This document shows positions 1 to 34,544 of a stretch of 40,920 bases of DNA, piece after piece (the stretch's first letter is position 1; every line of letters starts with the position of its first letter). A program made the position numbers and the translations under genes. Origin of the DNA: Naegleria gruberi. Lineage: Eukaryota. The notes below the pieces were generated by a model, which saw nothing but the letters and a program-made list of their open reading frames with translations, made no database searches and was not told the DNA's origin. The DNA is taken from NCBI GenBank assembly GCA_000004985.1, contig GG738943.1; one strand, written 5' to 3'.

Positions 1-400
1 CGAACCCAAACCCAAACCCAAACCCAAACCCAAACCCAAACCCAAACCCAAACCCAAACCCAAACCCAAACCCAAACCCAAACCCAAACCCAAACCCAAA
101 CCCAAACCCAAACCCAAACCCAAACCCAAACCCAACCCAAACCCAAACCCAAACCCAAACCCAAACCCAAACCCAAACCCAAACCCAAACCCAAACCCAA
201 ACCCAAACCCAAACCCAAACCCAAACCCAAACCCAAACCCAAACCCAAACCCAAACCCAAACCCAAACCCAAACCCAAACCCAAACCCAAACCCAAACCC
301 AAACCCAAACCCAAACCCAAACCCAAACCCAAACCCAAACCCAAACCCAACCAAACCCAAACCCAAACCCAAACCCAAAAACCCAAACCTAAAAACCTAA
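1..400. repeat. Telomeric tandem repeat (CCCAAA)n, about 60 units, degenerating into CCTAAAAA-like units at ~370-400. The C-rich strand reads 5'->3' at the left edge, the orientation expected for a left chromosome end.
   Basis: Direct reading shows near-perfect hexamer CCCAAA repeated from position 5 to ~380. Variant units are CCCAA at ~134-138 and CCCAA+CCAAA at ~345-354. The tract ends in aaaaacccaaacctaaaaacctaaaaaa. Confidence 0.85.
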
Positions 401-3400
401 AAAATATTTAAGTCCAGACCCAATGTTTCAAAGTTCAAACCCTAGCCCAATTTATTGATTATTATATCATTCGATTGTAAATGATGAATAGAACAATGTA
501 TTATATTTAGTTTTTCAATTTATAAAATATTAACATTGTAAATAATGTAAGATTAAAAATTTGTAAAATGAAACCATAGGAAGGATAATAATTTCAAAAT
601 CCTTTAATGAGATTATATAGTCTATATCATCATTAACAACATTTATAATCACTTTCATATCACATTTCTAAACTTCAAGTCTGTAGATATAAAAGTATGA
701 AAGTGAAAAGGGAAGTTGTGAGGTAAAAGAGGTAAACTATAACTTTTGAGTTTATCATCAAAACATATTGAATCCTGACATGAAAATGTTCCATTTGATG
801 AGTATACATCGAATATCAAATTTATTTTAACTTTCATATTTACAGATTTCTTCCCTCAACCATCAAGGTCAACTAGGGATGAAAAGGAGGAAATCTGGAA
901 AAAGGACCACCTATTGAAACTTTACCAAAATGATTTATATGATCTATAGTGATATAGATTTCAATTTCATATCATAAGAATTAGAAATGGTACCNNNNNN
1001 NNNNNNNNNNNNNNNNNNNNNNNNNNNNNNNNNNNNNNNNNNNNNNNNNNNNNNNNNNNNNNNNNNNNNNNNNNNNNNNNNNNNNNNNNNNNNNNNNNNN
1101 NNNNNNNNNNNNNNNNNNNNNNNNNNNNNNNNNNNNNNNNNNNNNNNNNNNNNNNNNNNNNNNNNNNNNNNNNNNNNNNNNNNNNNNNNNNNNNNNNNNN
1201 NNNNNNNNNNNNNNNNNNNNNNNNNNNNNNNNNNNNNNNNNNNNNNNNNNNNNNNNNNNNNNNNNNNNNNNNNNNNNNNNNNNNNNNNNNNNNNNNNNNN
1301 NNNNNNNNNNNNNNNNNNNNNNNNNNNNNNNNNNNNNNNNNNNNNNNNNNNNNNNNNNNNNNNNNNNNNNNNNNNNNNNNNNNNNNNNNNNNNNNNNNNN
1401 NNNNNNNNNNNNNNNNNNNNNNNNNNNNNNNNNNNNNNNNNNNNNNNNNNNNNNNNNNNNNNNNNNNNNNNNNNNNNNNNNNNNNNNNNNNNNNNNNNNN
1501 NNNNNNNNNNNNNNNNNNNNNNNNNNNNNNNNNNNNNNNNNNNNNNNNNNNNNNNNNNNNNNNNNNNNNNNNNNNNNNNNNNNNNNNNNNNNNNNNNNNN
1601 NNNNNNNNNNNNNNNNNNNNNNNNNNNNNNNNNNNNNNNNNNNNNNNNNNNNNNNNNNNNNNNNNNNNNNNNNNNNNNNNNNNNNNNNNNNNNNNNNNNN
1701 NNNNNNNNNNNNNNNNNNNNNNNNNNNNNNNNNNNNNNNNNNNNNNNNNNNNNNNNNNNNNNNNNNNNNNNNNNNNNNNNNNNNNNNNNNNNNNNNNNNN
1801 NNNNNNNNNNNNNNNNNNNNNNNNNNNNNNNNNNNNNNNNNNNNNNNNNNNNNNNNNNNNNNNNNNNNNNNNNNNNNNNNNNNNNNNNNNNNNNNNNNNN
1901 NNNNNNNNNNNNNNNNNNNNNNNNNNNNNNNNNNNNNNNNNNNNNNNNNNNNNNNNNNNNNNNNNNNNNNNNNNNNNNNNNNNNNNNNNNNNNNNNNNNN
2001 NNNNNNNNNNNNNNNNNNNNNNNNNNNNNNNNNNNNNNNNNNNNNNNNNNNNNNNNNNNNNNNNNNNNNNNNNNNNNNNNNNNNNNNNNNNNNNNNNNNN
2101 NNNNNNNNNNNNNNNNNNNNNNNNNNNNNNNNNNNNNNNNNNNNNNNNNNNNNNNNNNNNNNNNNNNNNNNNNNNNNNNNNNNNNNNNNNNNNNNNNNNN
2201 NNNNNNNNNNNNNNNNNNNNNNNNNNNNNNNNNNNNNNNNNNNNNNNNNNNNNNNNNNNNNNNNNNNNNNNNNNNNNNNNNNNNNNNNNNNNNNNNNNNN
2301 NNNNNNNNNNNNNNNNNNNNNNNNNNNNNNNNNNNNNNNNNNNNNNNNNNNNNNNNNNNNNNNNNNNNNNNNNNNNNNNNNNNNNNNNNNNNNNNNNNNN
2401 NNNNNNNNNNNNNNNNNNNNNNNNNNNNNNNNNNNNNNNNNNNNNNNNNNNNNNNNNNNNNNNNNNNNNNNNNNNNNNNNNNNNNNNNNNNNNNNNNNNN
2501 NNNNNNNNNNNNNNNNNNNNNNNNNNNNNNNNNNNNNNNNNNNNNNNNNNNNNNNNNNNNNNNNNNNNNNNNNNNNNNNNNNNNNNNNNNNNNNNNNNNN
2601 NNNNNNNNNNNNNNNNNNNNNNNNNNNNNNNNNNNNNNNNNNNNNNNNNNNNNNNNNNNNNNNNNNNNNNNNNNNNNNNNNNNNNNNNNNNNNNNNNNNN
2701 NNNNNNNNNNNNNNNNNNNNNNNNNNNNNNNNNNNNNNNNNNNNNNNNNNNNNNNNNNNNNNNNNNNNNNNNNNNNNNNNNNNNNNNNNNNNNNNNNNNN
2801 NNNNNNNNNNNNNNNNNNNNNNNNNNNNNNNNNNNNNNNNNNNNNNNNNNNNNNNNNNNNNNNNNNNNNNNNNNNNNNNNNNNNNNNNNNNNNNNNNNNN
2901 NNNNNNNNNNNNNNNNNNNNNNNNNNNNNNNNNNNNNNNNNNNNNNNNNNNNNNNNNNNNNNNNNNNNNNNNNNNNNNNNNNNNNNNNNNNNNNNNNNNN
3001 NNNNNNNNNNNNNNNNNNNNNNNNNNNNNNNNNNNNNNNNNNNNNNNNNNNNNNNNNNNNNNNNNNNNNNNNNNNNNNNNNNNNNNNNNNNNNNNNNNNN
3101 NNNNNNNNNNNNNNNNNNNNNNNNNNNNNNNNNNNNNNNNNNNNNNNNNNNNNNNNNNNNNNNNNNNNNNNNNNNNNNNNNNNNNNNNNNNNNNNNNNNN
3201 NNNNNNNNNNNNNNNNNNNNNNNNNNNNNNNNNNNNNNNNNNNNNNNNNNNNNNNNNNNNNNNNNNNNNNNNNNNNNNNNNNNNNNNNNNNNNNNNNNNN
3301 NNNNNNNNNNNNNNNNNNNNNNNNNNNNNNNNNNNNNNNNNNNNNNNNNNNNNNNNNNNNNNNNNNNNNNNNNNNNNNNNNNNNNNNNNNNNNNNNNNNN

Positions 3401-4375
3401 NNNNNNNNNNNNNNNNNNNNNNNNNNNNNNNNNNNNNNNNNNNNNNNNNNNNNNNNNNNNNNNNNNNNNNNNNNNNNNNNNNNNNNNNNNNNNNNNNNNN
3501 NNNNNNNNNNNNNNNNNNNNNNNNNNNNNNNNNNNNNNNNNNNNNNNNNNNNNNNNNNNNNNNNNNNNNNNNNNNNNNNNNNNNNNNNNNNNNNNNNNNN
3601 NNNNNNNNNNNNNNNNNNNNNNNNNNNNNNNNNNNNNNNNNNNNNNNNNNNNNNNNNNNNNNNNNNNNNNNNNNNNNNNNNNNNNNNNNNNNNNNNNNNN
3701 NNNNNNNNNNNNNNNNNNNNNNNNNNNNNNNNNNNNNNNNNNNNNNNNNNNNNNNNNNNNNNNNNNNNNNNNNNNNNNNNNNNNNNNNNNNNNNNNNNNN
3801 NNNNNNNNNNNNNNNNNNNNNNNNNNNNNNNNNNNNNNNNNNNNNNNNNNNNNNNNNNNNNNNNNNNNNNNNNNNNNNNNNNNNNNNNNNNNNNNNNNNN
3901 NNNNNNNNNNNNNNNNNNNNNNNNNNNNNNNNNNNNNNNNNNNNNNNNNNNNNNNNNNNNNNNNNNNNNNNNNNNNNNNNNNNNNNNNNNNNNNNNNNNN
4001 NNNNNNNNNNNNNNNNNNNNNNNNNNNNNNNNNNNNNNNNNNNNNNNNNNNNNNNNNNNNNNNNNNNNNNNNNNNNNNNNNNNNNNNNNNNNNNNNNNNN
4101 NNNNNNNNNNNNNNNNNNNNNNNNNNNNNNNNNNNNNNNNNNNNNNNNNNNNNNNNNNNNNNNNNNNNNNNNNNNNNNNNNNNNNNNNNNNNNNNNNNNN
4201 NNNNNNNNNNNNNNNNNNNNNNNNNNNNNNNNNNNNNNNNNNNNNNNNNNNNNNNNNNNNNNNNNNNNNNNNNNNNNNNNNNNNNNNNNNNNNNNNNNNN
4301 NNNNNNNNNNNNNNNNNNNNNNNNNNNNNNNNNNNNNNNNNNNNNNNNNNNNNNNNNNNNNNNNATACCAATAAA

Positions 4376-4486
4376 ACTCAATAGAAGAGTTAATTCTTCT
4401 CATTTTCAAATAGATTATTCAATATAGAACACATCTAGATAGTTTCCAGATCACAAAAGTCAAGATGCTATATATGGTCTTTGATT
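4376..4486. repeat. Copy A of a ~110-bp direct repeat (subtelomere-associated repeat family). It abuts the N-run, so it may extend into the gap.
   Basis: Hand alignment to 6325-6434 gives ~85% identity: actcaat-agaagagttaatt...cttctcatttt-caaatagattattcaatatagaacacatctagatagtttccagatcacaaaagtcaagatgctatatatggtc versus actcaattcaagagttaattttatttcttctttttttcatatagattattgaatatggaacacatctagcctatttccagactataaaagtccagatcccaaatatggca. Confidence 0.7.
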
Positions 4487-6324
4487 AAATTTAAAAATAG
4501 ACTGCCGTTAATTACTGGAATATTAATATTCAAAGCTTGATGATAAAGCTATTGATTGAAATCAAACAGATTATTGAATATTGATCATTGAATTGGTGAA
4601 TAATCACTCTCTTGATTCTTGATAATGCTACATATTTCATATTGCATGCAAATCAACCTGATTCAATCTACAAAGGTTGGTAGTTGCACCACTTCGTGGC
4701 GAAACTACCCATCCACGATCAATCAACATAAGAATCACTTCCATTCAACTCAATTTGACCGTTATATTCAATAAATCAATGAAATGTTCCTTTATTAGCA
4801 ATACCTATTCAATCTAATGAGTAGATTCACGTCCCAAACATTTGACTTCTAAAAGTCCATAATTCAAAAGTTAGTACTGACCTGACCTTTAAATATCTAT
4901 CAATACAAGAAATGAAAACATCAAATTTACATCATTAATAGATGATAAGAAATATAATCAATGATATGAATCTTCACTAAGTAATCTCTTAAATAACCCA
5001 AATAAATCAACTCTGAATCCTAACCAAACCCCCCTTTTCATTTCAAGAAATGAATCCGGTAGATAGTACATGATGGTAATTCAATGGAATGGCTGGAAAT
5101 CTGAAAGATATGGAAACAACTCCATTATCACTGAAATTAATATCATGATATGTAGACACTCTAATTAGCATATGGTATCAATTTCATGAATATTGGCTCA
5201 GTAGATATTGAGTTGACAACTCTATCATTTTACTATAGAACTTTGACATAAAATCAAAGATTATGCTCCAAATCACTTATTTTATATGTAATTAGTCTAG
5301 AATTGATAATACACATTCTGTACACCATTTATATACATCTATACAAGTTTAGAAACAATTCATGATACTTTCATTCAGTCAATCAGTAAATGTTCAATGT
5401 CAAGAGTGATTATATCCAAGTGTACGTTCTATCTCAGCGAAAGTACCTCCAACCGTCATGTAACTTTACCAGATACATTTAATCACGCTGATATACATCT
5501 GGAATCAATTTTAATGTTTTAGAATTGAATTCAGTATGATAATAATAACAATCTGTCAAATTGTCATATTTCAACACATTGAATATAATCCATCTCATTC
5601 ATTTTACAAAATATCATACAAGTATCAAATATGAATACACTTCCCTAGATGAGGAGAACAATCTGAGAAAGTTTCAAATTGATGGCTCAATATCTTCAAG
5701 TCAACTAAGGAAAATCTAAGGTAATCAATAGGGAAGAATCTTAATTTCAAAATTAAATTTTACCATCATATCAAAATCATTGAATAATGAATTAATTATA
5801 CAAGAATCATATATTCAATTATTATATTCATGTCAGTAATCAGTGAAGGTGACACTTCTTCAACCTTAGTATACACATCTCAATATCTAGACTGTCAATT
5901 CCACTGAAACTTGAAATACTACCTATCTAGATGATGGTATGACGACTCTTCATAGTAACATGTATGTGAAATTGAATGTTGACACTTTTCATCTCGTTAT
6001 ATTTATAGGGATGGTATCCAACAGAGTCTATTCACAATATCAAATATTGAAACTCATTCTTTATGGCATATGTGATGTCTAGAAGTGTTTTTGATGATAT
6101 CAATCTAGTTTAAAGCACTTTGGCGGAGTTGACACTGTTTAGTTACAAATACATGACATTTGGACCATAGTTTACATTCCATCTCAGTCATTTCGACGAG
6201 TTATTGATCAGTTTCACCACCATTATGTTTCTAACACACTTTAGTACAATTTATGTTTCATTAATGATTTCTGTGAAAGTTATTATCCAAATACCATATA
6301 TAGTAATATCAATAGTCGTTATAT

Positions 6325-6434
6325 ACTCAATTCAAGAGTTAATTTTATTTCTTCTTTTTTTCATATAGATTATTGAATATGGAACACATCTAGCCTATTT
6401 CCAGACTATAAAAGTCCAGATCCCAAATATGGCA
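6325..6434. repeat. Copy B of the ~110-bp direct repeat, 1949 bp downstream of copy A. Its 3' part (aaagtccagatcccaaatatgg) resembles the telomere-junction sequence at 405-440 (aagtccagacccaatgtttcaaag).
   Basis: Same alignment as copy A. No ORF of 60 aa or longer lies between the two copies. Confidence 0.7.
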
Positions 6435-6626
6435 AAATGAATTCTTGGCGAGAGGGCAAGTTTTTCTGACAAATTCCAAACTTTATTGATTATCTCAATA
6501 AATATAGAAAGTTACACCTTCCTGTTTTTACCACATGTAGATCAGTCTATTATACATCACATCGATAAGCTATAAGATCTGAGCCTGAGCATGTGCGGAT
6601 CCCAAACCAGAGAGATAATGACAGGT

Positions 6627-7063
6627 ACCAAAACCCAGTCTCCCAACAAACAACATCTTTACACCAGGTAATGGATGCCCTATAAAAGATTGCAAGGAAG
6701 AGGAGAACACTCAACACGCCATTTTCAACTGCAAGAAAACTGAATATCTTCGTGAAAGATTATGGAGAAGCCTAGAAGACAATATCCAACAAATAACCAA
6801 AAAACCTTTAGAAACAATCAGAAAAATACTAGTAACCCACTTGAAATCCAACACTATCCCTAAATATTCAACCATTTATATTGGAATACTTCCCAAAGAA
6901 GTCTACCAAACATTAGAGGCCTGGGATAAAGCACAAGAAATTCAAATAGAAATAATTAAATTCACTCACGCAATGTGGATAGAAAGATGCAACCACATAC
7001 ATCAACCAGCAACTTTACCAAACAACTATGTTTAAATAAACGAACTTACTAGCAAAAAAAAAA
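6627..7063 (+). mobile_element. 5'-truncated 3' end of a non-LTR (LINE-like) retrotransposon: the C-terminal ORF2 segment with a CCHC zinc knuckle, a short 3' UTR with AATAAA, and an A10 tail.
   Basis: Open frame 6627-7035 translates to ...GCPIKDCKEEENTQHAIFNCKKTEYLRERLW...HAMWIERCNHIHQPATLPNNYV* and carries a C-x4-C-x7-H-x4-C motif. TAA is at 7033-7035, AATAAA at 7035-7040 and ten As at 7054-7063. There is an in-frame TGA immediately upstream (~6624), so the element is truncated or degenerate. Confidence 0.45.
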
Positions 7064-7829
7064 CACAAACATAATCCATATAAAGCATGTGTCAATAATT
7101 TGGTACTCTTTTCTTGTGTAGGCATTGTCAAAGTTTGGTCCCATCAAATTTTGGAAACTATTCTTGAAGGCATTGAAATAGGATTCGAAATTTGTTTCTT
7201 TAACTGTTGGATTTTCAACCACATTTCTATTCGATTCTGATAACTGAACCGTTTCTGATCTATCCCCATCTAGAATCATATTCAAACCCTTGTGAGAACT
7301 GTGGCTGGCGCAAAGTTTGGCCACATGACCAACAAATCCTAAATTGACTTTTTTGGCATTCTTAAAGTGTCAATTGGATTCCAGGCACCTGAAGCATCTG
7401 ACATCCTACCTATATACTTTTCATCATAGAGACAATGAAGGTGATGTGAAATTTAATTAACAGAAAAATCAAAATCTTCATGGTTTCAACGAAACAAGAC
7501 GAAATAATTGATATGGTACATCTACAATAGTACTAATAAAAGTTTATTAATGTTTCAAGATGATTGGCTGTGTACTTTTGGCATGAATCATGATTGGTGA
7601 CCATGAATAACCCGAAGTTGGCAAAAACACAAAATGATGAAAATCTGATAATAAATATATTGTTTATTATGTATTTGAATAGAAGTGATGAAATATGGTC
7701 CATGTACATGTTGAAAATATACATGTATCTGACTTCATGATAACCAATAGGAAAATGTTCAATGTTCTGAAGTGATTTTACCTGGTGGAATCGACCATGA
7801 TGAACGAATCTAGATTGAAAGTTTTCCAA
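7049..7829 (-). other. Possible gene remnant or pseudogene on the minus strand. Exon-like ORF ...PDLYDNLENFQSRFVHHGRFHQ ends at a GTAAAA donor (7781). A candidate 421-nt intron (7361-7781) would join it to an ORF NAKKVNLGFVGHVAKLCASHSSHKGL...YQIIDTCFIW, which reads straight into the LINE poly(A) tract. No ATG start was found.
   Basis: Frame continuity was checked by hand across the GTAAAA...TTTAAG boundaries. The candidate intron would be much longer than the other introns in the window (54-129 nt). No recognisable domain. Confidence 0.2.
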
Positions 7830-8200
7830 ATTATCATATAAATCTGGCAGTGATATTGAATTTCACTAAAATAATACTATTATCAGATTTTTCCACAAAT
7901 ATTACTATTATAATGATGATAAATAACAATGATGAAATGTTAATATATTATTATTGTATTGATTGGATTTTGTAAAGTGTTAATTCAAGCGATCAAAACT
8001 TGAATTTCATGAAAAAGAAAACTGGCAATGTAACTTGAATCTTATTGTTTAGTAAAATACCATGAACGTGTTGATTCATGACCCAAGGTCATTTCGTCAC
8101 TCATGAATATCTGAGAGGGTGTTATGTATCCTAATATTCTAGCCAGCGCTGGATTTTCAGAATTTTGTCGAATTAAAGTGGCTGCAACCTCCTAAAATTC

Positions 8201-8251
8201 AAATTTATTCTGGATAAAATCAGATTTATCCAGATAAAAATAGAATAAATT
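8201..8251. promoter_or_regulatory. Imperfect 51-bp palindrome, 43 bp upstream of the ATG at 8294: aaatttattctggataaaatcagatttatccagataaaaatagaataaattt. Candidate promoter element or a tiny inverted-repeat (MITE-like) insertion.
   Basis: The outer 11-bp arms aaatttattct and agaataaattt are exact reverse complements. The inner 9-bp arms ctggataaa and tttatccag flank the loop atcagat. Confidence 0.3.
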
Positions 8252-8293
8252 TGAGTTTCTGAATAATAATTAATGATTAATTCAATTTAAAAA

Positions 8294-8900
8294 ATGGAAG
8301 AACTGCTAGGTATAGTCCAACAAATTAAATGTCTTACAGACATAGAATTAAAAGAAATCAATGATTTATTGAACAAGAACTTTATTAGAACTCCAAATTG
8401 TTTGAAATCTGAAAGTGCTGAAAGTTTGGCTGAAATTGGAATTAATATTAGGGTTGCAAGAATAATCATTGATTGTTCCACAGCTCATGCTTTACCAAAA
8501 CAAGATGTAGAACCAAAGGTCAAGAACAAAGATGACAAGTTTATCGAAAAATTAGAGGCTTTGGTTGAAGACGAAGTGCATTTTAAGGTTCAGTTTGAAT
8601 TACAAAATCCCTTTGAAGTTTATGATCCCATATCAAAGACCAATATTAAGTTAGGTTCTCCGTATAAGTTGTCTAATGTGAAATCCAAATTAAAAAATTA
8701 TAAGAAATCATCAGAAAAACAGAAAGTATTTGAAAGAACGCATTCTTTAATTAGAAACTATTTGGTGGACACTTATGAGGATTCCGCACCATTTACAATT
8801 ACAAGAGAATTGGTGGAAAAAGCTGAACAACATGAATCTGAAAAGAAAAAAAGAAAGAAGGAAGAACAATTACAACAAGAAAAAGAAAAACGACAAAAAG
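8294..8900 (+). CDS. Exon 1 of a hypothetical protein gene (MEELLGIVQQIKCLTDIELKEIN...EKEKRQK-). The ATG sits in an AAAAATGG context. The exon ends in phase 1 at a GTACGA donor.
   Basis: A 202-codon ORF. The stop seen in the ORF track (TAA at 8912) lies inside a 54-nt GT...AG intron (8901-8954, ~80% A+T). The reading frame continues unbroken after the intron. Confidence 0.55.
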
Positions 8901-8954
8901 GTACGAGTGATTAAATTATTTTTTGATTTAATTGTTAATTATTATTTGTTAAAG

Positions 8955-9525
8955 ACTTACAAAAAAAAAGAAATATTAAGGCAAGTTCGAAAAATGCTTA
9001 TGCAAGAATATTGCACTATCAAGCAAAAGAGAATGAGTTTAAGGAAAAATTAAACACCTCTCAATTACGATTTTTATCCTCAATTGATTGCATCAAGGAG
9101 CTAATAAGCAAGAATACATTGACGACAGAGGAAATAATCAAACTTGATTGGATTCAAAATATGTTTGTGGTTAAAAAGAAATTTTCAGCAGAAACTATCA
9201 ATTTATTCAAAAGAACATTGAATAATAATACGAACGGAATTGACTTTCTTCGGTTAAATGGTGCACCAATACCTTCAAAACAAACTTTGAAAAAAAATAC
9301 ATCAACAAGTGATCTATCATTCCACATTCTCATCACACTAGCACATAGATTTTTTGAATCATCAAGTAAGAAAAGGATTTCTTCTTCCGATCAGATATCA
9401 TTAAATCTATCAATCGATTCTACAGCATTAAATCAGGATATTTCTATTGATTTAAAGGATAACAAACTATACGGATTTGAAGAAGTTATTCAACTTGAAA
9501 ATGATGAAGCTTTCAAACAATTATT
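8955..9525 (+). CDS. Exon 2 (partial, runs into the N-run) of the same hypothetical gene: DLQKKRNIKASSKNAYARILHYQAKENEFKEKLNTSQLRFLSSIDCIKEL...LENDEAFKQLL. No domain recognised by eye.
   Basis: The frame is continuous from exon 1 once the 54-nt intron is removed (length divisible by 3, acceptor ttgttaaag|ac). The ORF runs open for 190 codons until the gap begins at 9526. Confidence 0.5.
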
Positions 9526-12500
9526 NNNNNNNNNNNNNNNNNNNNNNNNNNNNNNNNNNNNNNNNNNNNNNNNNNNNNNNNNNNNNNNNNNNNNNNNNNN
9601 NNNNNNNNNNNNNNNNNNNNNNNNNNNNNNNNNNNNNNNNNNNNNNNNNNNNNNNNNNNNNNNNNNNNNNNNNNNNNNNNNNNNNNNNNNNNNNNNNNNN
9701 NNNNNNNNNNNNNNNNNNNNNNNNNNNNNNNNNNNNNNNNNNNNNNNNNNNNNNNNNNNNNNNNNNNNNNNNNNNNNNNNNNNNNNNNNNNNNNNNNNNN
9801 NNNNNNNNNNNNNNNNNNNNNNNNNNNNNNNNNNNNNNNNNNNNNNNNNNNNNNNNNNNNNNNNNNNNNNNNNNNNNNNNNNNNNNNNNNNNNNNNNNNN
9901 NNNNNNNNNNNNNNNNNNNNNNNNNNNNNNNNNNNNNNNNNNNNNNNNNNNNNNNNNNNNNNNNNNNNNNNNNNNNNNNNNNNNNNNNNNNNNNNNNNNN
10001 NNNNNNNNNNNNNNNNNNNNNNNNNNNNNNNNNNNNNNNNNNNNNNNNNNNNNNNNNNNNNNNNNNNNNNNNNNNNNNNNNNNNNNNNNNNNNNNNNNNN
10101 NNNNNNNNNNNNNNNNNNNNNNNNNNNNNNNNNNNNNNNNNNNNNNNNNNNNNNNNNNNNNNNNNNNNNNNNNNNNNNNNNNNNNNNNNNNNNNNNNNNN
10201 NNNNNNNNNNNNNNNNNNNNNNNNNNNNNNNNNNNNNNNNNNNNNNNNNNNNNNNNNNNNNNNNNNNNNNNNNNNNNNNNNNNNNNNNNNNNNNNNNNNN
10301 NNNNNNNNNNNNNNNNNNNNNNNNNNNNNNNNNNNNNNNNNNNNNNNNNNNNNNNNNNNNNNNNNNNNNNNNNNNNNNNNNNNNNNNNNNNNNNNNNNNN
10401 NNNNNNNNNNNNNNNNNNNNNNNNNNNNNNNNNNNNNNNNNNNNNNNNNNNNNNNNNNNNNNNNNNNNNNNNNNNNNNNNNNNNNNNNNNNNNNNNNNNN
10501 NNNNNNNNNNNNNNNNNNNNNNNNNNNNNNNNNNNNNNNNNNNNNNNNNNNNNNNNNNNNNNNNNNNNNNNNNNNNNNNNNNNNNNNNNNNNNNNNNNNN
10601 NNNNNNNNNNNNNNNNNNNNNNNNNNNNNNNNNNNNNNNNNNNNNNNNNNNNNNNNNNNNNNNNNNNNNNNNNNNNNNNNNNNNNNNNNNNNNNNNNNNN
10701 NNNNNNNNNNNNNNNNNNNNNNNNNNNNNNNNNNNNNNNNNNNNNNNNNNNNNNNNNNNNNNNNNNNNNNNNNNNNNNNNNNNNNNNNNNNNNNNNNNNN
10801 NNNNNNNNNNNNNNNNNNNNNNNNNNNNNNNNNNNNNNNNNNNNNNNNNNNNNNNNNNNNNNNNNNNNNNNNNNNNNNNNNNNNNNNNNNNNNNNNNNNN
10901 NNNNNNNNNNNNNNNNNNNNNNNNNNNNNNNNNNNNNNNNNNNNNNNNNNNNNNNNNNNNNNNNNNNNNNNNNNNNNNNNNNNNNNNNNNNNNNNNNNNN
11001 NNNNNNNNNNNNNNNNNNNNNNNNNNNNNNNNNNNNNNNNNNNNNNNNNNNNNNNNNNNNNNNNNNNNNNNNNNNNNNNNNNNNNNNNNNNNNNNNNNNN
11101 NNNNNNNNNNNNNNNNNNNNNNNNNNNNNNNNNNNNNNNNNNNNNNNNNNNNNNNNNNNNNNNNNNNNNNNNNNNNNNNNNNNNNNNNNNNNNNNNNNNN
11201 NNNNNNNNNNNNNNNNNNNNNNNNNNNNNNNNNNNNNNNNNNNNNNNNNNNNNNNNNNNNNNNNNNNNNNNNNNNNNNNNNNNNNNNNNNNNNNNNNNNN
11301 NNNNNNNNNNNNNNNNNNNNNNNNNNNNNNNNNNNNNNNNNNNNNNNNNNNNNNNNNNNNNNNNNNNNNNNNNNNNNNNNNNNNNNNNNNNNNNNNNNNN
11401 NNNNNNNNNNNNNNNNNNNNNNNNNNNNNNNNNNNNNNNNNNNNNNNNNNNNNNNNNNNNNNNNNNNNNNNNNNNNNNNNNNNNNNNNNNNNNNNNNNNN
11501 NNNNNNNNNNNNNNNNNNNNNNNNNNNNNNNNNNNNNNNNNNNNNNNNNNNNNNNNNNNNNNNNNNNNNNNNNNNNNNNNNNNNNNNNNNNNNNNNNNNN
11601 NNNNNNNNNNNNNNNNNNNNNNNNNNNNNNNNNNNNNNNNNNNNNNNNNNNNNNNNNNNNNNNNNNNNNNNNNNNNNNNNNNNNNNNNNNNNNNNNNNNN
11701 NNNNNNNNNNNNNNNNNNNNNNNNNNNNNNNNNNNNNNNNNNNNNNNNNNNNNNNNNNNNNNNNNNNNNNNNNNNNNNNNNNNNNNNNNNNNNNNNNNNN
11801 NNNNNNNNNNNNNNNNNNNNNNNNNNNNNNNNNNNNNNNNNNNNNNNNNNNNNNNNNNNNNNNNNNNNNNNNNNNNNNNNNNNNNNNNNNNNNNNNNNNN
11901 NNNNNNNNNNNNNNNNNNNNNNNNNNNNNNNNNNNNNNNNNNNNNNNNNNNNNNNNNNNNNNNNNNNNNNNNNNNNNNNNNNNNNNNNNNNNNNNNNNNN
12001 NNNNNNNNNNNNNNNNNNNNNNNNNNNNNNNNNNNNNNNNNNNNNNNNNNNNNNNNNNNNNNNNNNNNNNNNNNNNNNNNNNNNNNNNNNNNNNNNNNNN
12101 NNNNNNNNNNNNNNNNNNNNNNNNNNNNNNNNNNNNNNNNNNNNNNNNNNNNNNNNNNNNNNNNNNNNNNNNNNNNNNNNNNNNNNNNNNNNNNNNNNNN
12201 NNNNNNNNNNNNNNNNNNNNNNNNNNNNNNNNNNNNNNNNNNNNNNNNNNNNNNNNNNNNNNNNNNNNNNNNNNNNNNNNNNNNNNNNNNNNNNNNNNNN
12301 NNNNNNNNNNNNNNNNNNNNNNNNNNNNNNNNNNNNNNNNNNNNNNNNNNNNNNNNNNNNNNNNNNNNNNNNNNNNNNNNNNNNNNNNNNNNNNNNNNNN
12401 NNNNNNNNNNNNNNNNNNNNNNNNNNNNNNNNNNNNNNNNNNNNNNNNNNNNNNNNNNNNNNNNNNNNNNNNNNNNNNNNNNNNNNNNNNNNNNNNNNNN

Positions 12501-13552
12501 NNNNNNNNNNNNNNNNNNNNNNNNNNNNNNNNNNNNNNNNNNNNNNNNNNNNNNNNNNNNNNNNNNNNNNNNNNNNNNNNNNNNNNNNNNNNNNNNNNNN
12601 NNNNNNNNNNNNNNNNNNNNNNNNNNNNNNNNNNNNNNNNNNNNNNNNNNNNNNNNNNNNNNNNNNNNNNNNNNNNNNNNNNNNNNNNNNNNNNNNNNNN
12701 NNNNNNNNNNNNNNNNNNNNNNNNNNNNNNNNNNNNNNNNNNNNNNNNNNNNNNNNNNNNNNNNNNNNNNNNNNNNNNNNNNNNNNNNNNNNNNNNNNNN
12801 NNNNNNNNNNNNNNNNNNNNNNNNNNNNNNNNNNNNNNNNNNNNNNNNNNNNNNNNNNNNNNNNNNNNNNNNNNNNNNNNNNNNNNNNNNNNNNNNNNNN
12901 NNNNNNNNNNNNNNNNNNNNNNNNNNNNNNNNNNNNNNNNNNNNNNNNNNNNNNNNNNNNNNNNNNNNNNNNNNNNNNNNNNNNNNNNNNNNNNNNNNNN
13001 NNNNNNNNNNNNNNNNNNNNNNNNNNNNNNNNNNNNNNNNNNNNNNNNNNNNNNNNNNNNNNNNNNNNNNNNNNNNNNNNNNNNNNNNNNNNNNNNNNNN
13101 NNNNNNNNNNNNNNNNNNNNNNNNNNNNNNNNNNNNNNNNNNNNNNNNNNNNNNNNNNNNNNNNNNNNNNNNNNNNNNNNNNNNNNNNNNNNNNNNNNNN
13201 NNNNNNNNNNNNNNNNNNNNNNNNNNNNNNNNNNNNNNNNNNNNNNNNNNNNNNNNNNNNNNNNNNNNNNNNNNNNNNNNNNNNNNNNNNNNNNNNNNNN
13301 NNNNNNNNNNNNNNNNNNNNNNNNNNNNNNNNNNNNNNNNNNNNNNNNNNNNNNNNNNNNNNNNNNNNNNNNNNNNNNNNNNNNNNNNNNNNNNNNNNNN
13401 NNNNNNNNNNNNNNNNNNNNNNNNNNNNNNNNNNNNNNNNNNNNNNNNNNNNNNNNNNNNNNNNNNNNNNNNNNNNNNNNNNNNNNNNNNNNNNNNNNNN
13501 NNNNNNNNNNNNNNNNNNNNNNNNNNNNNNNNNNNNNNNNNNNNNNNNNNNN

Positions 13553-15011
13553 CTCCCACCACTTGACTCATCCATTCCTTTCTGAGCTTTCCAACTCCGT
13601 GATGATGAGATAAACTTCCACCTTGAAGTAAGATTTCATCTCTTGCTTCAGCTTCAATCTCTGAGAATGCCTTAATTGGATCTTGTAATCCTCTAAAGAT
13701 GAATCCATAATAGAAATAGATACAGGCACCAGTTTCGTATACTTGAGTGACACGAGCCGAAACCCATGGTGTTGGAACATTTCGTTGCTTGGCACTTTCT
13801 TTGACTCTTTCTTCTACTTTCTTGATCATTGGAACGACTCTTGACCAAGGAGCTGAAGTTTCAAAACTTTCTGACATGAAATAATAATTGAAACCATAAT
13901 CTCTCAAATACGCAATGACATAGGTCAGTAAATAACCTCGATAACCAGCTTCAGCACCTGCCACAAGTCCTCCATATTTAGCAGTTATGTCATAAATAAT
14001 TTTCTGTTGCCTGTCAATGTCAGATTGACTTCCTTCGAATAATAAAGTAATGACACACATCTTTTCCTTATCAAATCCACAACCCTTAGTAACGTACAAT
14101 CCCTTAAACCAATCACTAAGGCCTTCAAGCTTACTTTCTTGTTTAGGTTTTAGTGATTGACCAAACTGAAATTGAGAATTGTCAATTAGACGAATCGAAG
14201 CAGGAGCAACTCTTCTATTCGAAACTTCATGAAGACAAGCAACTCCTGCCTCAAAATCAGGAACCAACACAGAGCCATAAACTTGACATTCAGGACATTT
14301 CCTTACTCTTAATGTCACTTCTGTCACAATTCCCAAAATTCCTTCAGATCCCATAAATAGCTGCATCAAATCTGGTCCAGTTGACTTTCGTGGAACATTA
14401 CATGGAAGAAACCAAGTTCCCTTTGGAGTGACAATCTTGACATTTACCAACATATCTTCGATATTTCCATATTCATTCTTTTTCATTCCTGATGCACGAG
14501 TTGCAATCCAACCGCCAAGAGAACTGAATTCAATGCTGTCTGGTTCGTGACCTAGTGTCAGATTGTATTTTTGTTTGAGTTCTTGTTGGAGATCAATACC
14601 AATGGCACCTGATTGGATGGTGGCAGTGTGACAGGTCATGTCAACATTTAAAATTTTGTTCATTTCTTGAAGGTCAACTGAGACAATCATTCTTGTTTCA
14701 TTTTCTGGACAGAGTAAAGCTTGTGTAACGTTCGTTCCTCCTCCATATGGAATTAATGTCAATTCATTGGAATATTTAGTGGCAAGTGACACAATCTTCT
14801 CGACATGTTCATGAGAATTTGGATAGATTACAACATCGACCAATCTCTTGAACTTTCCAAATCTTAATTGATAAATCTCTTGACAACAATGTCCATGAGA
14901 ATGCATCAAACGAACCTCATCATCAAATGTCAAATATTTGTAACATTTGACTTGCCTTAATTCCTCAATAAATTTTTCACAAATATTTGGCTTGTGAATT
15001 TTTTGTTTCAT
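13553..15011 (-). CDS. AGPS: Alkyldihydroxyacetone-phosphate synthase (alkylglycerone-phosphate synthase, FAD-linked oxidase family; peroxisomal ether-lipid biosynthesis). The N-terminal 486 codons are visible and intronless. The 3' end (about 30-40 codons) is hidden in the N-run.
   Basis: ATG is at 15009-15011 (minus strand), with an in-frame stop 9 codons upstream. The FAD-binding PCMH region reads LVDVVIYPNSHEHVEKIVSLATKYSNELTLIPYGGGTNV. The motifs HSHGH and HHHGVGKLRKEWM match the catalytic His-His-His loop characteristic of AGPS. Confidence 0.85.
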
Positions 15012-18000
15012 TTCTGACCATGATTGACTTGAAGATTCGAATTTTTATTCAAACCTGTGAAATTCTCAAANNNNNNNNNNNNNNNNNNNNNNNNNNNNNN
15101 NNNNNNNNNNNNNNNNNNNNNNNNNNNNNNNNNNNNNNNNNNNNNNNNNNNNNNNNNNNNNNNNNNNNNNNNNNNNNNNNNNNNNNNNNNNNNNNNNNNN
15201 NNNNNNNNNNNNNNNNNNNNNNNNNNNNNNNNNNNNNNNNNNNNNNNNNNNNNNNNNNNNNNNNNNNNNNNNNNNNNNNNNNNNNNNNNNNNNNNNNNNN
15301 NNNNNNNNNNNNNNNNNNNNNNNNNNNNNNNNNNNNNNNNNNNNNNNNNNNNNNNNNNNNNNNNNNNNNNNNNNNNNNNNNNNNNNNNNNNNNNNNNNNN
15401 NNNNNNNNNNNNNNNNNNNNNNNNNNNNNNNNNNNNNNNNNNNNNNNNNNNNNNNNNNNNNNNNNNNNNNNNNNNNNNNNNNNNNNNNNNNNNNNNNNNN
15501 NNNNNNNNNNNNNNNNNNNNNNNNNNNNNNNNNNNNNNNNNNNNNNNNNNNNNNNNNNNNNNNNNNNNNNNNNNNNNNNNNNNNNNNNNNNNNNNNNNNN
15601 NNNNNNNNNNNNNNNNNNNNNNNNNNNNNNNNNNNNNNNNNNNNNNNNNNNNNNNNNNNNNNNNNNNNNNNNNNNNNNNNNNNNNNNNNNNNNNNNNNNN
15701 NNNNNNNNNNNNNNNNNNNNNNNNNNNNNNNNNNNNNNNNNNNNNNNNNNNNNNNNNNNNNNNNNNNNNNNNNNNNNNNNNNNNNNNNNNNNNNNNNNNN
15801 NNNNNNNNNNNNNNNNNNNNNNNNNNNNNNNNNNNNNNNNNNNNNNNNNNNNNNNNNNNNNNNNNNNNNNNNNNNNNNNNNNNNNNNNNNNNNNNNNNNN
15901 NNNNNNNNNNNNNNNNNNNNNNNNNNNNNNNNNNNNNNNNNNNNNNNNNNNNNNNNNNNNNNNNNNNNNNNNNNNNNNNNNNNNNNNNNNNNNNNNNNNN
16001 NNNNNNNNNNNNNNNNNNNNNNNNNNNNNNNNNNNNNNNNNNNNNNNNNNNNNNNNNNNNNNNNNNNNNNNNNNNNNNNNNNNNNNNNNNNNNNNNNNNN
16101 NNNNNNNNNNNNNNNNNNNNNNNNNNNNNNNNNNNNNNNNNNNNNNNNNNNNNNNNNNNNNNNNNNNNNNNNNNNNNNNNNNNNNNNNNNNNNNNNNNNN
16201 NNNNNNNNNNNNNNNNNNNNNNNNNNNNNNNNNNNNNNNNNNNNNNNNNNNNNNNNNNNNNNNNNNNNNNNNNNNNNNNNNNNNNNNNNNNNNNNNNNNN
16301 NNNNNNNNNNNNNNNNNNNNNNNNNNNNNNNNNNNNNNNNNNNNNNNNNNNNNNNNNNNNNNNNNNNNNNNNNNNNNNNNNNNNNNNNNNNNNNNNNNNN
16401 NNNNNNNNNNNNNNNNNNNNNNNNNNNNNNNNNNNNNNNNNNNNNNNNNNNNNNNNNNNNNNNNNNNNNNNNNNNNNNNNNNNNNNNNNNNNNNNNNNNN
16501 NNNNNNNNNNNNNNNNNNNNNNNNNNNNNNNNNNNNNNNNNNNNNNNNNNNNNNNNNNNNNNNNNNNNNNNNNNNNNNNNNNNNNNNNNNNNNNNNNNNN
16601 NNNNNNNNNNNNNNNNNNNNNNNNNNNNNNNNNNNNNNNNNNNNNNNNNNNNNNNNNNNNNNNNNNNNNNNNNNNNNNNNNNNNNNNNNNNNNNNNNNNN
16701 NNNNNNNNNNNNNNNNNNNNNNNNNNNNNNNNNNNNNNNNNNNNNNNNNNNNNNNNNNNNNNNNNNNNNNNNNNNNNNNNNNNNNNNNNNNNNNNNNNNN
16801 NNNNNNNNNNNNNNNNNNNNNNNNNNNNNNNNNNNNNNNNNNNNNNNNNNNNNNNNNNNNNNNNNNNNNNNNNNNNNNNNNNNNNNNNNNNNNNNNNNNN
16901 NNNNNNNNNNNNNNNNNNNNNNNNNNNNNNNNNNNNNNNNNNNNNNNNNNNNNNNNNNNNNNNNNNNNNNNNNNNNNNNNNNNNNNNNNNNNNNNNNNNN
17001 NNNNNNNNNNNNNNNNNNNNNNNNNNNNNNNNNNNNNNNNNNNNNNNNNNNNNNNNNNNNNNNNNNNNNNNNNNNNNNNNNNNNNNNNNNNNNNNNNNNN
17101 NNNNNNNNNNNNNNNNNNNNNNNNNNNNNNNNNNNNNNNNNNNNNNNNNNNNNNNNNNNNNNNNNNNNNNNNNNNNNNNNNNNNNNNNNNNNNNNNNNNN
17201 NNNNNNNNNNNNNNNNNNNNNNNNNNNNNNNNNNNNNNNNNNNNNNNNNNNNNNNNNNNNNNNNNNNNNNNNNNNNNNNNNNNNNNNNNNNNNNNNNNNN
17301 NNNNNNNNNNNNNNNNNNNNNNNNNNNNNNNNNNNNNNNNNNNNNNNNNNNNNNNNNNNNNNNNNNNNNNNNNNNNNNNNNNNNNNNNNNNNNNNNNNNN
17401 NNNNNNNNNNNNNNNNNNNNNNNNNNNNNNNNNNNNNNNNNNNNNNNNNNNNNNNNNNNNNNNNNNNNNNNNNNNNNNNNNNNNNNNNNNNNNNNNNNNN
17501 NNNNNNNNNNNNNNNNNNNNNNNNNNNNNNNNNNNNNNNNNNNNNNNNNNNNNNNNNNNNNNNNNNNNNNNNNNNNNNNNNNNNNNNNNNNNNNNNNNNN
17601 NNNNNNNNNNNNNNNNNNNNNNNNNNNNNNNNNNNNNNNNNNNNNNNNNNNNNNNNNNNNNNNNNNNNNNNNNNNNNNNNNNNNNNNNNNNNNNNNNNNN
17701 NNNNNNNNNNNNNNNNNNNNNNNNNNNNNNNNNNNNNNNNNNNNNNNNNNNNNNNNNNNNNNNNNNNNNNNNNNNNNNNNNNNNNNNNNNNNNNNNNNNN
17801 NNNNNNNNNNNNNNNNNNNNNNNNNNNNNNNNNNNNNNNNNNNNNNNNNNNNNNNNNNNNNNNNNNNNNNNNNNNNNNNNNNNNNNNNNNNNNNNNNNNN
17901 NNNNNNNNNNNNNNNNNNNNNNNNNNNNNNNNNNNNNNNNNNNNNNNNNNNNNNNNNNNNNNNNNNNNNNNNNNNNNNNNNNNNNNNNNNNNNNNNNNNN

Positions 18001-21000
18001 NNNNNNNNNNNNNNNNNNNNNNNNNNNNNNNNNNNNNNNNNNNNNNNNNNNNNNNNNNNNNNNNNNNNNNNNNNNNNNNNNNNNNNNNNNNNNNNNNNNN
18101 NNNNNNNNNNNNNNNNNNNNNNNNNNNNNNNNNNNNNNNNNNNNNNNNNNNNNNNNNNNNNNNNNNNNNNNNNNNNNNNNNNNNNNNNNNNNNNNNNNNN
18201 NNNNNNNNNNNNNNNNNNNNNNNNNNNNNNNNNNNNNNNNNNNNNNNNNNNNNNNNNNNNNNNNNNNNNNNNNNNNNNNNNNNNNNNNNNNNNNNNNNNN
18301 NNNNNNNNNNNNNNNNNNNNNNNNNNNNNNNNNNNNNNNNNNNNNNNNNNNNNNNNNNNNNNNNNNNNNNNNNNNNNNNNNNNNNNNNNNNNNNNNNNNN
18401 NNNNNNNNNNNNNNNNNNNNNNNNNNNNNNNNNNNNNNNNNNNNNNNNNNNNNNNNNNNNNNNNNNNNNNNNNNNNNNNNNNNNNNNNNNNNNNNNNNNN
18501 NNNNNNNNNNNNNNNNNNNNNNNNNNNNNNNNNNNNNNNNNNNNNNNNNNNNNNNNNNNNNNNNNNNNNNNNNNNNNNNNNNNNNNNNNNNNNNNNNNNN
18601 NNNNNNNNNNNNNNNNNNNNNNNNNNNNNNNNNNNNNNNNNNNNNNNNNNNNNNNNNNNNNNNNNNNNNNNNNNNNNNNNNNNNNNNNNNNNNNNNNNNN
18701 NNNNNNNNNNNNNNNNNNNNNNNNNNNNNNNNNNNNNNNNNNNNNNNNNNNNNNNNNNNNNNNNNNNNNNNNNNNNNNNNNNNNNNNNNNNNNNNNNNNN
18801 NNNNNNNNNNNNNNNNNNNNNNNNNNNNNNNNNNNNNNNNNNNNNNNNNNNNNNNNNNNNNNNNNNNNNNNNNNNNNNNNNNNNNNNNNNNNNNNNNNNN
18901 NNNNNNNNNNNNNNNNNNNNNNNNNNNNNNNNNNNNNNNNNNNNNNNNNNNNNNNNNNNNNNNNNNNNNNNNNNNNNNNNNNNNNNNNNNNNNNNNNNNN
19001 NNNNNNNNNNNNNNNNNNNNNNNNNNNNNNNNNNNNNNNNNNNNNNNNNNNNNNNNNNNNNNNNNNNNNNNNNNNNNNNNNNNNNNNNNNNNNNNNNNNN
19101 NNNNNNNNNNNNNNNNNNNNNNNNNNNNNNNNNNNNNNNNNNNNNNNNNNNNNNNNNNNNNNNNNNNNNNNNNNNNNNNNNNNNNNNNNNNNNNNNNNNN
19201 NNNNNNNNNNNNNNNNNNNNNNNNNNNNNNNNNNNNNNNNNNNNNNNNNNNNNNNNNNNNNNNNNNNNNNNNNNNNNNNNNNNNNNNNNNNNNNNNNNNN
19301 NNNNNNNNNNNNNNNNNNNNNNNNNNNNNNNNNNNNNNNNNNNNNNNNNNNNNNNNNNNNNNNNNNNNNNNNNNNNNNNNNNNNNNNNNNNNNNNNNNNN
19401 NNNNNNNNNNNNNNNNNNNNNNNNNNNNNNNNNNNNNNNNNNNNNNNNNNNNNNNNNNNNNNNNNNNNNNNNNNNNNNNNNNNNNNNNNNNNNNNNNNNN
19501 NNNNNNNNNNNNNNNNNNNNNNNNNNNNNNNNNNNNNNNNNNNNNNNNNNNNNNNNNNNNNNNNNNNNNNNNNNNNNNNNNNNNNNNNNNNNNNNNNNNN
19601 NNNNNNNNNNNNNNNNNNNNNNNNNNNNNNNNNNNNNNNNNNNNNNNNNNNNNNNNNNNNNNNNNNNNNNNNNNNNNNNNNNNNNNNNNNNNNNNNNNNN
19701 NNNNNNNNNNNNNNNNNNNNNNNNNNNNNNNNNNNNNNNNNNNNNNNNNNNNNNNNNNNNNNNNNNNNNNNNNNNNNNNNNNNNNNNNNNNNNNNNNNNN
19801 NNNNNNNNNNNNNNNNNNNNNNNNNNNNNNNNNNNNNNNNNNNNNNNNNNNNNNNNNNNNNNNNNNNNNNNNNNNNNNNNNNNNNNNNNNNNNNNNNNNN
19901 NNNNNNNNNNNNNNNNNNNNNNNNNNNNNNNNNNNNNNNNNNNNNNNNNNNNNNNNNNNNNNNNNNNNNNNNNNNNNNNNNNNNNNNNNNNNNNNNNNNN
20001 NNNNNNNNNNNNNNNNNNNNNNNNNNNNNNNNNNNNNNNNNNNNNNNNNNNNNNNNNNNNNNNNNNNNNNNNNNNNNNNNNNNNNNNNNNNNNNNNNNNN
20101 NNNNNNNNNNNNNNNNNNNNNNNNNNNNNNNNNNNNNNNNNNNNNNNNNNNNNNNNNNNNNNNNNNNNNNNNNNNNNNNNNNNNNNNNNNNNNNNNNNNN
20201 NNNNNNNNNNNNNNNNNNNNNNNNNNNNNNNNNNNNNNNNNNNNNNNNNNNNNNNNNNNNNNNNNNNNNNNNNNNNNNNNNNNNNNNNNNNNNNNNNNNN
20301 NNNNNNNNNNNNNNNNNNNNNNNNNNNNNNNNNNNNNNNNNNNNNNNNNNNNNNNNNNNNNNNNNNNNNNNNNNNNNNNNNNNNNNNNNNNNNNNNNNNN
20401 NNNNNNNNNNNNNNNNNNNNNNNNNNNNNNNNNNNNNNNNNNNNNNNNNNNNNNNNNNNNNNNNNNNNNNNNNNNNNNNNNNNNNNNNNNNNNNNNNNNN
20501 NNNNNNNNNNNNNNNNNNNNNNNNNNNNNNNNNNNNNNNNNNNNNNNNNNNNNNNNNNNNNNNNNNNNNNNNNNNNNNNNNNNNNNNNNNNNNNNNNNNN
20601 NNNNNNNNNNNNNNNNNNNNNNNNNNNNNNNNNNNNNNNNNNNNNNNNNNNNNNNNNNNNNNNNNNNNNNNNNNNNNNNNNNNNNNNNNNNNNNNNNNNN
20701 NNNNNNNNNNNNNNNNNNNNNNNNNNNNNNNNNNNNNNNNNNNNNNNNNNNNNNNNNNNNNNNNNNNNNNNNNNNNNNNNNNNNNNNNNNNNNNNNNNNN
20801 NNNNNNNNNNNNNNNNNNNNNNNNNNNNNNNNNNNNNNNNNNNNNNNNNNNNNNNNNNNNNNNNNNNNNNNNNNNNNNNNNNNNNNNNNNNNNNNNNNNN
20901 NNNNNNNNNNNNNNNNNNNNNNNNNNNNNNNNNNNNNNNNNNNNNNNNNNNNNNNNNNNNNNNNNNNNNNNNNNNNNNNNNNNNNNNNNNNNNNNNNNNN

Positions 21001-33000: not shown

Positions 33001-33350
33001 NNNNNNNNNNNNNNNNNNNNNNNNNNNNNNNNNNNNNNNNNNNNNNNNNNNNNNNNNNNNNNNNNNNNNNNNNNNNNNNNNNNNNNNNNNNNNNNNNNNN
33101 NNNNNNNNNNNNNNNNNNNNNNNNNNNNNNNNNNNNNNNNNNNNNNNNNNNNNNNNNNNNNNNNNNNNNNNNNNNNNNNNNNNNNNNNNNNNNNNNNNNN
33201 NNNNNNNNNNNNNNNNNNNNNNNNNNNNNNNNNNNNNNNNNNNNNNNNNNNNNNNNNNNNNNNNNNNNNNNNNNNNNNNNNNNNNNNNNNNNNNNNNNNN
33301 NNNNNNNNNNNNNNNNNNNNNNNNNNNNNNNNNNNNNNNNNNNNNNNNNN

Positions 33351-33794
33351 AATAGCCTGACAGGGTTGATGAACGATGATGATGATGATATACTTCCAGT
33401 CATTTCATGTTTCCAACCAGTTATTGATCCAAAAGATGGTTCAATGATTGTTGGTATTCGAAACAATTTCCCAACCAACTTGTTTCAAATCTATTCTCAG
33501 AATGAACGTGGTGTATGGTCATGTGTGAAATCCATTGCAAAGGAAGGATTGTTTTCTTATCCACAAGATGAAGACATTTCCTTTTCATTTCTTCTCGACC
33601 AGACGAATCAATACATTCTCTTAAATAAGGAAGGACATGGTCTGTTGATGGTTAGTGTGGAGAGTGGCGCCATTGTCAAATCATTTGAGAATAGAAAGGA
33701 GGGTGCCAATGTTGGTGGAATGTGTTTCAATTCAATTAGTGGTGAATTATTTGTTTGTGATGCTCAATATGGTGTTGTGAGAGTTTTCAAATAA
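33351..33794 (+). CDS. C-terminal 147 codons of a + strand gene whose body lies in the 18.3-kb N-run. It has NHL-repeat-like beta-propeller blades (e.g. GANVGGMCFNSISGELFVCDAQYGVVRVFK*).
   Basis: Open frame from the gap edge to TAA at 33792-33794. The G-x-hydrophobic...D-x-x-N/Y-x-hydrophobic-x-V-F pattern is typical of NHL repeats. An acidic run DDDDD is also present. Confidence 0.4.
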   Translation, partial: NSLTGLMNDDDDDILPVISCFQPVIDPKDGSMIVGIRNNFPTNLFQIYSQNERGVWSCVKSIAKEGLFSYPQDEDISFSFLLDQTNQYILLNKEGHGLLMVSVESGAIVKSFENRKEGANVGGMCFNSISGELFVCDAQYGVVRVFK

Positions 33795-33977
33795 GGCAAT
33801 CATGATGATTCACAGTTCCAATACTAAATACTAACCAACAGCTAAATTCTGTTAAAGTCCTCAAGAAAAAGATGGTTCAAATCAAATTGACCAAATATGA
33901 AAAGGTTCCATTTTTGAACTTCAAATAATTGGACTAAAGAAAGATAATAAACAGTTAATTCAAATAATTCAAAAGAA

Positions 33978-34477
33978 ATGCATCAAACTGATCATCATTC
34001 TACTGCTACATCATCATCTGGCAGTTTTAAAGTATTCTACAGTGATTTGGACTTGTGGGCTCTCACAGTTGACCAATTAAAACAACACATGAAAGATTTG
34101 GGAATTTATCATGGTTGTTCCCATTTGAGAAAGGAAGAATTAATTGAAAAGATTAAAGAATTCAATCATTTGGTGGAGGAACATCATCATCATGATCATC
34201 ATGGAGAGAAGAGAAAACACAATGATTCTGAAATAAAGAAGGAAGAAAGTCCAAAGAAGGAGAAGGTGAGTGATGATATTCTGGAGGAGGATTTGTTGCA
34301 TCCACATTCATTCAGTTCCTTGTCCATTTCAAAAAAGGAAGAACCAGCTGAGGTTGCAGCAACCACTCATCATCATATTACTAGCTCTCACAAATCTAAA
34401 GAACATAGAAAGAGAAGATTTGTTTCCAGTTGTCCAATTAAAACTCAAGAAAGAATTGAAAGAGCTCTCACTCAAAA
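33978..34477 (+). CDS. Exon 1 of a SAP-SWIM-RING-variant protein gene. A SAP-like motif (LTVDQLKQHMKDLGIYHGCSHLRKEELIEKIKEF) is followed by His-rich low-complexity sequence (HHHHDHH, THHH). The donor is CAAAA|GTAGGT.
   Basis: ATG at 33978 in a context aaagaaATGc. The ORF-track stop (TAG at 34479) overlaps the GTAGGT donor. Splicing to 34545 keeps the frame open. Confidence 0.65.
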
Positions 34478-34544
34478 GTAGGTTGTTCCAATAATTTCAC
34501 AATTAATTCAATAATGATAATACTATTTAACACATATCATGTAG

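Follow-up and report, generated by a model that had tools for sequence, protein, structure and literature searches.

The 'human-type' telomere repeat TTAGGG has been inferred as the ancestral state both of eukaryotes as a whole and of Excavata; the excavate telomeres cited there as experimentally characterised come from trypanosomatids (Fulneckova et al. 2013, Genome Biol Evol 5:468, PMC3622300). That survey screened 143 genome assemblies for TnAmGo arrays and, using array position and orientation as its criteria, gave TTTGGG as the candidate telomere motif of Naegleria gruberi, whose genome data (cited there as the assembly of Fritz-Laylin et al. 2010) contained a convincing terminal pattern of this repeat. 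[quoted passage not shown] Another described system close to this motif is Paramecium, in which TTTGGG is one of two telomere units, the other being TTGGGG, and both come from a single telomerase RNA (PMC5855555, PMC13085455); the variability has been explained there by misincorporation at one position of the template (PMC13085455) or by a stuttering step (PMC5855555). Our literature search returned nothing on Naegleria telomeres or telomerase later than the 2013 survey, no experimental characterisation of them, and no relevant paper that links telomerase reverse transcriptase to Naegleria; the string 'telomer' does not occur in the papers on the Naegleria pangenome, on N. fowleri nanopore sequencing and on single-cell Naegleria.

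The DNA analysed here is one entire scaffold from the published draft genome of N. gruberi, 40,920 bp in length, which we will henceforth refer to as the window. Its readable part amounts to 11,383 bases (positions 1–994, 4365–9525, 13553–15070, 33351–35763 and 39624–40920), and the remaining 72% consists of N runs (995–4364, 9526–13552, 15071–33350 and 35764–39623). We take these runs to be gaps of the public scaffold, since the deposited model of one of its genes (AGPS; 490 aa) diverges from the open reading frame (ORF) exactly at an N boundary.

A preliminary description of this DNA had proposed that the left end of the window is a terminal telomere of the TTTGGG type in the orientation expected for a left end. 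This proposal is upheld by the start of the array at base 1, the inward run of the C-rich strand, the one-sided decay of the repeat, the eukaryotic host and the published survey. The feature is thus real and was correctly read, but it was already known for this species: given that the motif was published for N. gruberi in 2013, the array is a rediscovery, and the survey most likely used the very assembly that includes this scaffold. The same description had called the unit uncommon among described telomeres, which is true as far as it goes, although the motif had already been described for N. gruberi and is also a Paramecium unit. Overall, we assign a probability of roughly 0.9 to the reading that bases 1–387 belong to a (TTTGGG)n telomere made by telomerase at the end of an N. 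gruberi nuclear chromosome, of which they represent the inner, sequenced part.

Anatomy of the terminal array

TRF placed the array at positions 3–393 (period 6, 65.3 copies, 97% matches, score 736). A unit-by-unit parse of positions 1–387 resolved it into 60 perfect CCCAAA units, three shortened units and one lengthened unit (i.e., ~64 units), and with the array opening at base 1 this agrees with the preliminary estimate of about 60 tandem CCCAAA units from the first bases onwards. Bases 1–4 (CGAA) form a 4-nt partial unit that is in phase with the repeat and has one mismatch (G at base 2), while the first perfect unit occupies positions 5–10. The parts of the array and its inner boundary are as follows:

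1–387, plus strand (the C-rich strand): telomeric array (CCCAAA)n, supported by the unit parse, TRF and the probe scan
131–135, plus strand: variant unit CCCAA with one A missing, a visible break in the perfect run
346–355, plus strand: variant pair CCCAA+CCAAA, supported by the sequence and the probe scan
374–404, plus strand: degenerate transition zone, supported by the sequence and by a TRF period-8 row at 371–403
374–381, plus strand: transition-zone unit CCCAAAAA
382–387, plus strand: CCCAAA, the last perfect unit
388–395, plus strand: transition-zone unit CCTAAAAA
396–404, plus strand: transition-zone unit CCTAAAAAA

Both sites of variant units in the preliminary description were recovered, with its positions for them (~134–138 and ~345–354) offset by 1–3 nt. 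The pair at 346–355 would most simply be two perfect units minus one 2-nt 'AC' deletion. More generally, the variant units read as 1–2-nt homopolymer-type deletions on a small draft contig, which telomerase slippage (the process that the preliminary description had invoked), replication slippage and sequencing or consensus error would all predict equally. The decay into degenerate units that had been described at the subtelomere boundary was also seen, at 374–404 only: the degenerate units CCCAAAAA, CCTAAAAA and CCTAAAAAA are confined to the inner side of the array, and the distal units are homogeneous. Read on the G-strand, CCTAAAAA becomes TTTTTAGG and CCTAAAAAA becomes TTTTTTAGG.

The orientation is telomeric: from base 1 inward the plus strand is the C-rich one, and the minus strand accordingly reads TTTGGG, with its 5'->3' direction pointing at the scaffold end. 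When the window was scanned with a three-unit probe allowing at most one mismatch, we obtained 57 matches, all of them on the plus strand and within positions 5–379, compared to 0 matches in 100 dinucleotide-preserving shuffles. Outside the array, the readable window (11,383 bases) contained no CCCAAA/TTTGGG dimer; the alternative hexamer CCCCAA/TTGGGG was found nowhere in the readable window and in 0 of the 64 array units.

The array displays features expected of a telomere, namely a short (5–8 nt) unit with a G cluster (a TnAmGo minisatellite), a G-strand running 5'->3' outward and decay at the proximal side only. Interstitial or linker-coding arrays have unique DNA on both sides and often lie within an ORF; here, nothing lies distal to base 1. 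Nor were TTGGGG and TTTGGG interspersed, as they are in arrays of the Paramecium type. While the array is terminal on the complete public scaffold, it sits on a 994-bp contig that adjoins a gap, and because its length is set by what was assembled, the figure of ~390 bp is only a lower bound on the length of the telomere.

Near-perfect, short, G-rich hexamers which are homogeneous distally and degenerate proximally are the signature of templated synthesis by telomerase. Under such a mechanism, an enzyme made up of TERT and an RNA with a template of ~1.5 CCCAAA copies (e.g., CCCAAACCC) would add six nucleotides per round to the 3' end of the G-strand, lagging-strand synthesis would fill in the C-strand, and a 3' overhang would be expected. 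Distal repeats would be constantly renewed and so kept homogeneous, and the innermost units (374–404), never being resynthesised, would drift to forms such as CCCAAAAA and CCTAAAAA. We detected neither a telomerase RNA nor TERT in the readable window, which gave no Rfam match and held no other occurrence of CCCAAACCC.

From the array to the first genes

Going inward from the transition zone, the window contains the following features as far as AGPS:

405–994: unique, AT-rich telomere-adjacent DNA (26% G+C), ending at a scaffold gap
995–4364: first N run (3,370 bp), a gap of the public draft scaffold
4365–8293: gene-poor subtelomeric DNA with short ORF fragments only
8294–8914, plus strand: the telomere-proximal gene identified, with 100% identity over all 206 residues to EFC36101.1 / XP_002668845.1 (NAEGRDRAFT_76228, N. 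gruberi predicted protein)
13553–15011, minus strand: N-terminal 486 codons of AGPS (alkylglycerone-phosphate synthase), the rest of which lies in a gap

This layout, in which a telomere is followed by a short, gene-poor and repeat-bearing subtelomere and then by genes, is that of a normal chromosome end of a small eukaryote. The distance from the array to the first identified gene (at 8294) is ~7.9 kb, of which 3.4 kb is gap. The stretch at 405–994 contained no convincing ORF and no gene linking the contig to Naegleria; the array-bearing 994-bp contig is connected to the gene-bearing remainder solely by the original scaffolding, across the 3.4-kb gap. At the opposite end, the scaffold stops in ordinary unique sequence, which is an assembly break.

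For the readable subtelomeric ORF fragments, no homologue was found and no Pfam family exceeded the threshold, and Rfam and tRNA scans of the readable window found no family and no tRNA. The idea that an ORF at 6622–7032 is the tail of a retroelement was dropped, the ORF being without a Pfam match and without a homologue. A 106-codon open frame at 7052–7369 (minus strand) had a sub-threshold Pfam match to an ion-transport family (E = 0.0014) and may be a pseudogene fragment. Immediately upstream of the first identified gene, at 8193–8246, lies a 22-nt inverted repeat (ATTCAAATTTATTCTGGATAAA / TTTATCCAGATAAAAATAGAAT, with a 6-nt spacer) some 50 nt before the ATG of 8294–8914; this repeat, also scored by TRF as a period-20/21 repeat, may be a promoter-region element.

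An element of ~100 nt occurs twice in the subtelomeric DNA, at 4376–4477 and 6325–6432 (1,955 bp apart, 81% identity). The first 60–70 nt inside the junction (405–470) weakly resemble the end of the copy at 6325–6432, the score being reached by 3 of 1000 shuffles, and comparison of 405–470 with the copy at 4376–4477 gave no similarity signal. A further reading is that the two innermost units, CCTAAAAA and CCTAAAAAA, are not products of random decay; the weak likeness would in that case mean that the chromosome end was made by a break inside the ~100-nt element and then healed by telomerase. We regard this reading as very improbable.

The genes further in are AGPS, an RGS-domain protein, a RING-finger protein and the C-terminus of a P-type ATPase. 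The AGPS ORF is identical to EFC36103.1 at 484 of 485 residues, and its best named matches are from N. gruberi, N. fowleri (78%) and Willaertia magna (74%). A dictyostelid amoeba, which composition and the style of the ORFs had suggested as the source, was rejected on these AGPS matches. The deposited AGPS model is 490 aa long, whereas relatives have about 655 aa; given that the gene runs into the gap and the model stops at the edge, annotated N. gruberi proteins of this scaffold can be truncated.

A second copy of AGPS (EFC36883.1) is located on another N. gruberi scaffold (196,593 bp) and is identical at 283 of 300 residues, the differences comprising four point differences and one 14-residue divergent block. 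On the basis of this near-identical copy, the 40.9-kb telomeric scaffold may correspond to part of the 196,593-bp scaffold, either as a diverged haplotype or through subtelomeric duplication. As regards synteny, AGPS alone is in common with N. fowleri, where it lies ~130 kb from a contig end. The W. magna orthologue is located ~11.5 kb from an end of contig JBEGDK010000098.1, of which positions 413978–435960 of 437495 were covered. That end lies downstream of AGPS, as it does in the N. gruberi scaffold, and the intervening genes differ; the last 300 nt of the 413978–435960 stretch are extremely AT-rich and non-coding.

Look-alike arrays and alternative explanations

A scan for (CCCAAA)6 revealed perfect interstitial (CCCAAA)n arrays of 36–552 bp in more than 120 bacterial and archaeal genomes, including complete chromosomes (loci L125–L244, e.g., L209 at 1375–1926, L242, L144 and L170). 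In some of them the array falls within a large surface or secreted protein and is read as a Pro-Asn, Lys-Pro or Gln-Thr linker, as in Companilactobacillus nantensis, where an SlpA-domain protein contains 92 units, and in a Paenibacillus solani PL8 lyase; many other arrays are found outside long ORFs. Given how common interstitial arrays are in prokaryotes, the presence of (CCCAAA)n alone is not diagnostic of a telomere.

We also studied the orientation of the repeat in 120 sampled metagenome contigs with (CCCAAA)6, among which we found no Naegleria, i.e., none similar to the window. Ninety-two arrays were internal and short (29–138 bp), and the contigs concerned had a median G+C content of 52%. 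Among AT-rich contigs (defined as those with <42% G+C) that ended in the array, 17 had the telomeric orientation and 2 the opposite one (p = 7e-4). By contrast, GC-rich contigs ending in the array showed each orientation six times, which is what random assembly breaks would give. The difference between the 17:2 and 6:6 splits means that orientation at a contig end is informative in AT-rich genomes, in which the (CCCAAA)n hexamer behaves as a telomere. Comparing ORF lengths under the standard and ciliate codes did not separate the metagenome contigs; this comparison is uninformative because AT-rich DNA inflates ORFs under either code.

In one metagenome, JAESGV01, thirteen contigs (L010, L032, L034, L045, L057, L080, L081, L085, L086, L087, L105, L118 and L123) carried (TTTGGG)n at, or no more than ~40 nt from, an end, all in the telomeric orientation (p = 2e-4). 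These contigs have abrupt junctions to differing unique sequences, occasional G-richer units, 22–39% G+C and long standard-code ORFs, and one of them (L087) encodes two PPR-DYW deaminase proteins. The PPR-DYW deaminase family is known from Naegleria and from a few other protists. The source of the contigs is a eukaryote that shares the TTTGGG telomere motif, possibly a heterolobosean.

Three other explanations of the array in the window can be considered. The one that survives best is that the draft assembly happened to break inside an interstitial telomere-like repeat or ordinary hexamer microsatellite. Assemblies often stop inside tandem repeats and the contig concerned is short (994 bp); such an explanation can also appeal to the even split of orientations among terminal arrays of GC-rich metagenome contigs, to the occurrence of (CCCAAA)n inside many prokaryote genomes and to the internal blocks reported in most genomes with terminal repeats (PMC3622300). 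However, with its ~64 units the array exceeds in length all interstitial arrays of the metagenome sample (29–138 bp) and all but one of those in the prokaryote-genome sample. Moreover, it has the telomeric orientation, its repeat decays on the inner side only, and the same motif was found at terminal positions in the N. gruberi data (PMC3622300), all of which leaves an interstitial repeat unlikely.

Alternatively, the array may mark a real chromosome end that is kept up mostly through recombination or through copying from one end to another, and not by telomerase. The window carries no information on the enzyme, and our search found no paper on a Naegleria telomerase, so that both leave room for such maintenance. 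Ends maintained by recombination are usually built of long or heterogeneous units. The array instead pairs uniform, short distal units with degenerate proximal ones, which is the signature of telomerase and makes this second explanation very unlikely.

Finally, the least probable explanation, that the 994-bp contig is foreign or chimeric and was mis-scaffolded onto Naegleria genes (e.g., a ciliate macronuclear end or a cloning artefact), could draw on TTTGGG being one of the two Paramecium telomere units, on the absence from the 994 bp of any gene linking it to Naegleria and on a join that runs through a gap only, but it is opposed by the 0 of 64 units reading CCCCAA (whereas Paramecium mixes both hexamers; PMC13085455), by the weak similarity of the junction to an element further in on the scaffold (3 of 1000 shuffles reaching the score) and by the convincing terminal pattern of the motif published for N. 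gruberi (PMC3622300). A ciliate (Paramecium) origin in particular was rejected: there is no CCCCAA among the 64 units, which argues against a Paramecium-type contaminant, the long ORFs use the standard code, and the protein matches are to N. gruberi. Taken together, the three alternatives hold only a small share of the probability, and a telomerase-made telomere at a nuclear chromosome end of N. gruberi remains our preferred reading.

Comparison with known systems

As a discovery, the array carries little weight, the motif having been available since 2013 and most likely derived from the same assembly. Its value is practical and modest: one draft scaffold very probably reaches a chromosome end, the exact junction sequence becomes available for telomere-anchored PCR or for a terminal-restriction-fragment probe, and a CCCAAACCC-like template is predicted in the as yet undescribed telomerase RNA of Naegleria. 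Given that a pure TTTGGG telomere is rare among eukaryotes, wet-lab confirmation would still add a small missing piece to what is known of how telomeres evolved in Discoba.

The bacterial interstitial (CCCAAA)n arrays share with the N. gruberi end an identical hexamer in perfect tandem copies. They differ in being internal, in having mostly 6–20 copies and in lying in GC-richer DNA, and are look-alikes unrelated to chromosome ends.

In Paramecium, TTTGGG is a bona fide telomerase product, and both the hexamer length and the G3 block are common to the two systems. Paramecium arrays, however, interleave TTGGGG and TTTGGG, whereas 0 of the 64 units of the N. gruberi array are TTGGGG; furthermore, Paramecium is a ciliate, while Naegleria is a heterolobosean with ORFs in the standard code.

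With the TTAGGG repeat, the N. gruberi TTTGGG array has in common the six-nucleotide unit, the G3 block, the strand polarity and, very probably, the terminal position. The difference lies in position 3 of the unit, which is T and not A in N. gruberi, i.e., one template base away from the presumed ancestral motif.

The closest match is the candidate telomere of the 2013 survey (PMC3622300), which concerns the same species, the same motif and the same type of evidence (terminal position and right orientation); the window is one instance of it, and nothing substantive differs. What the present analysis provides beyond that survey is the anatomy of one end, including its ~64 units and their variants, the degenerate boundary, the ~8-kb gene-poor zone and the 994-bp contig on which the array lies.
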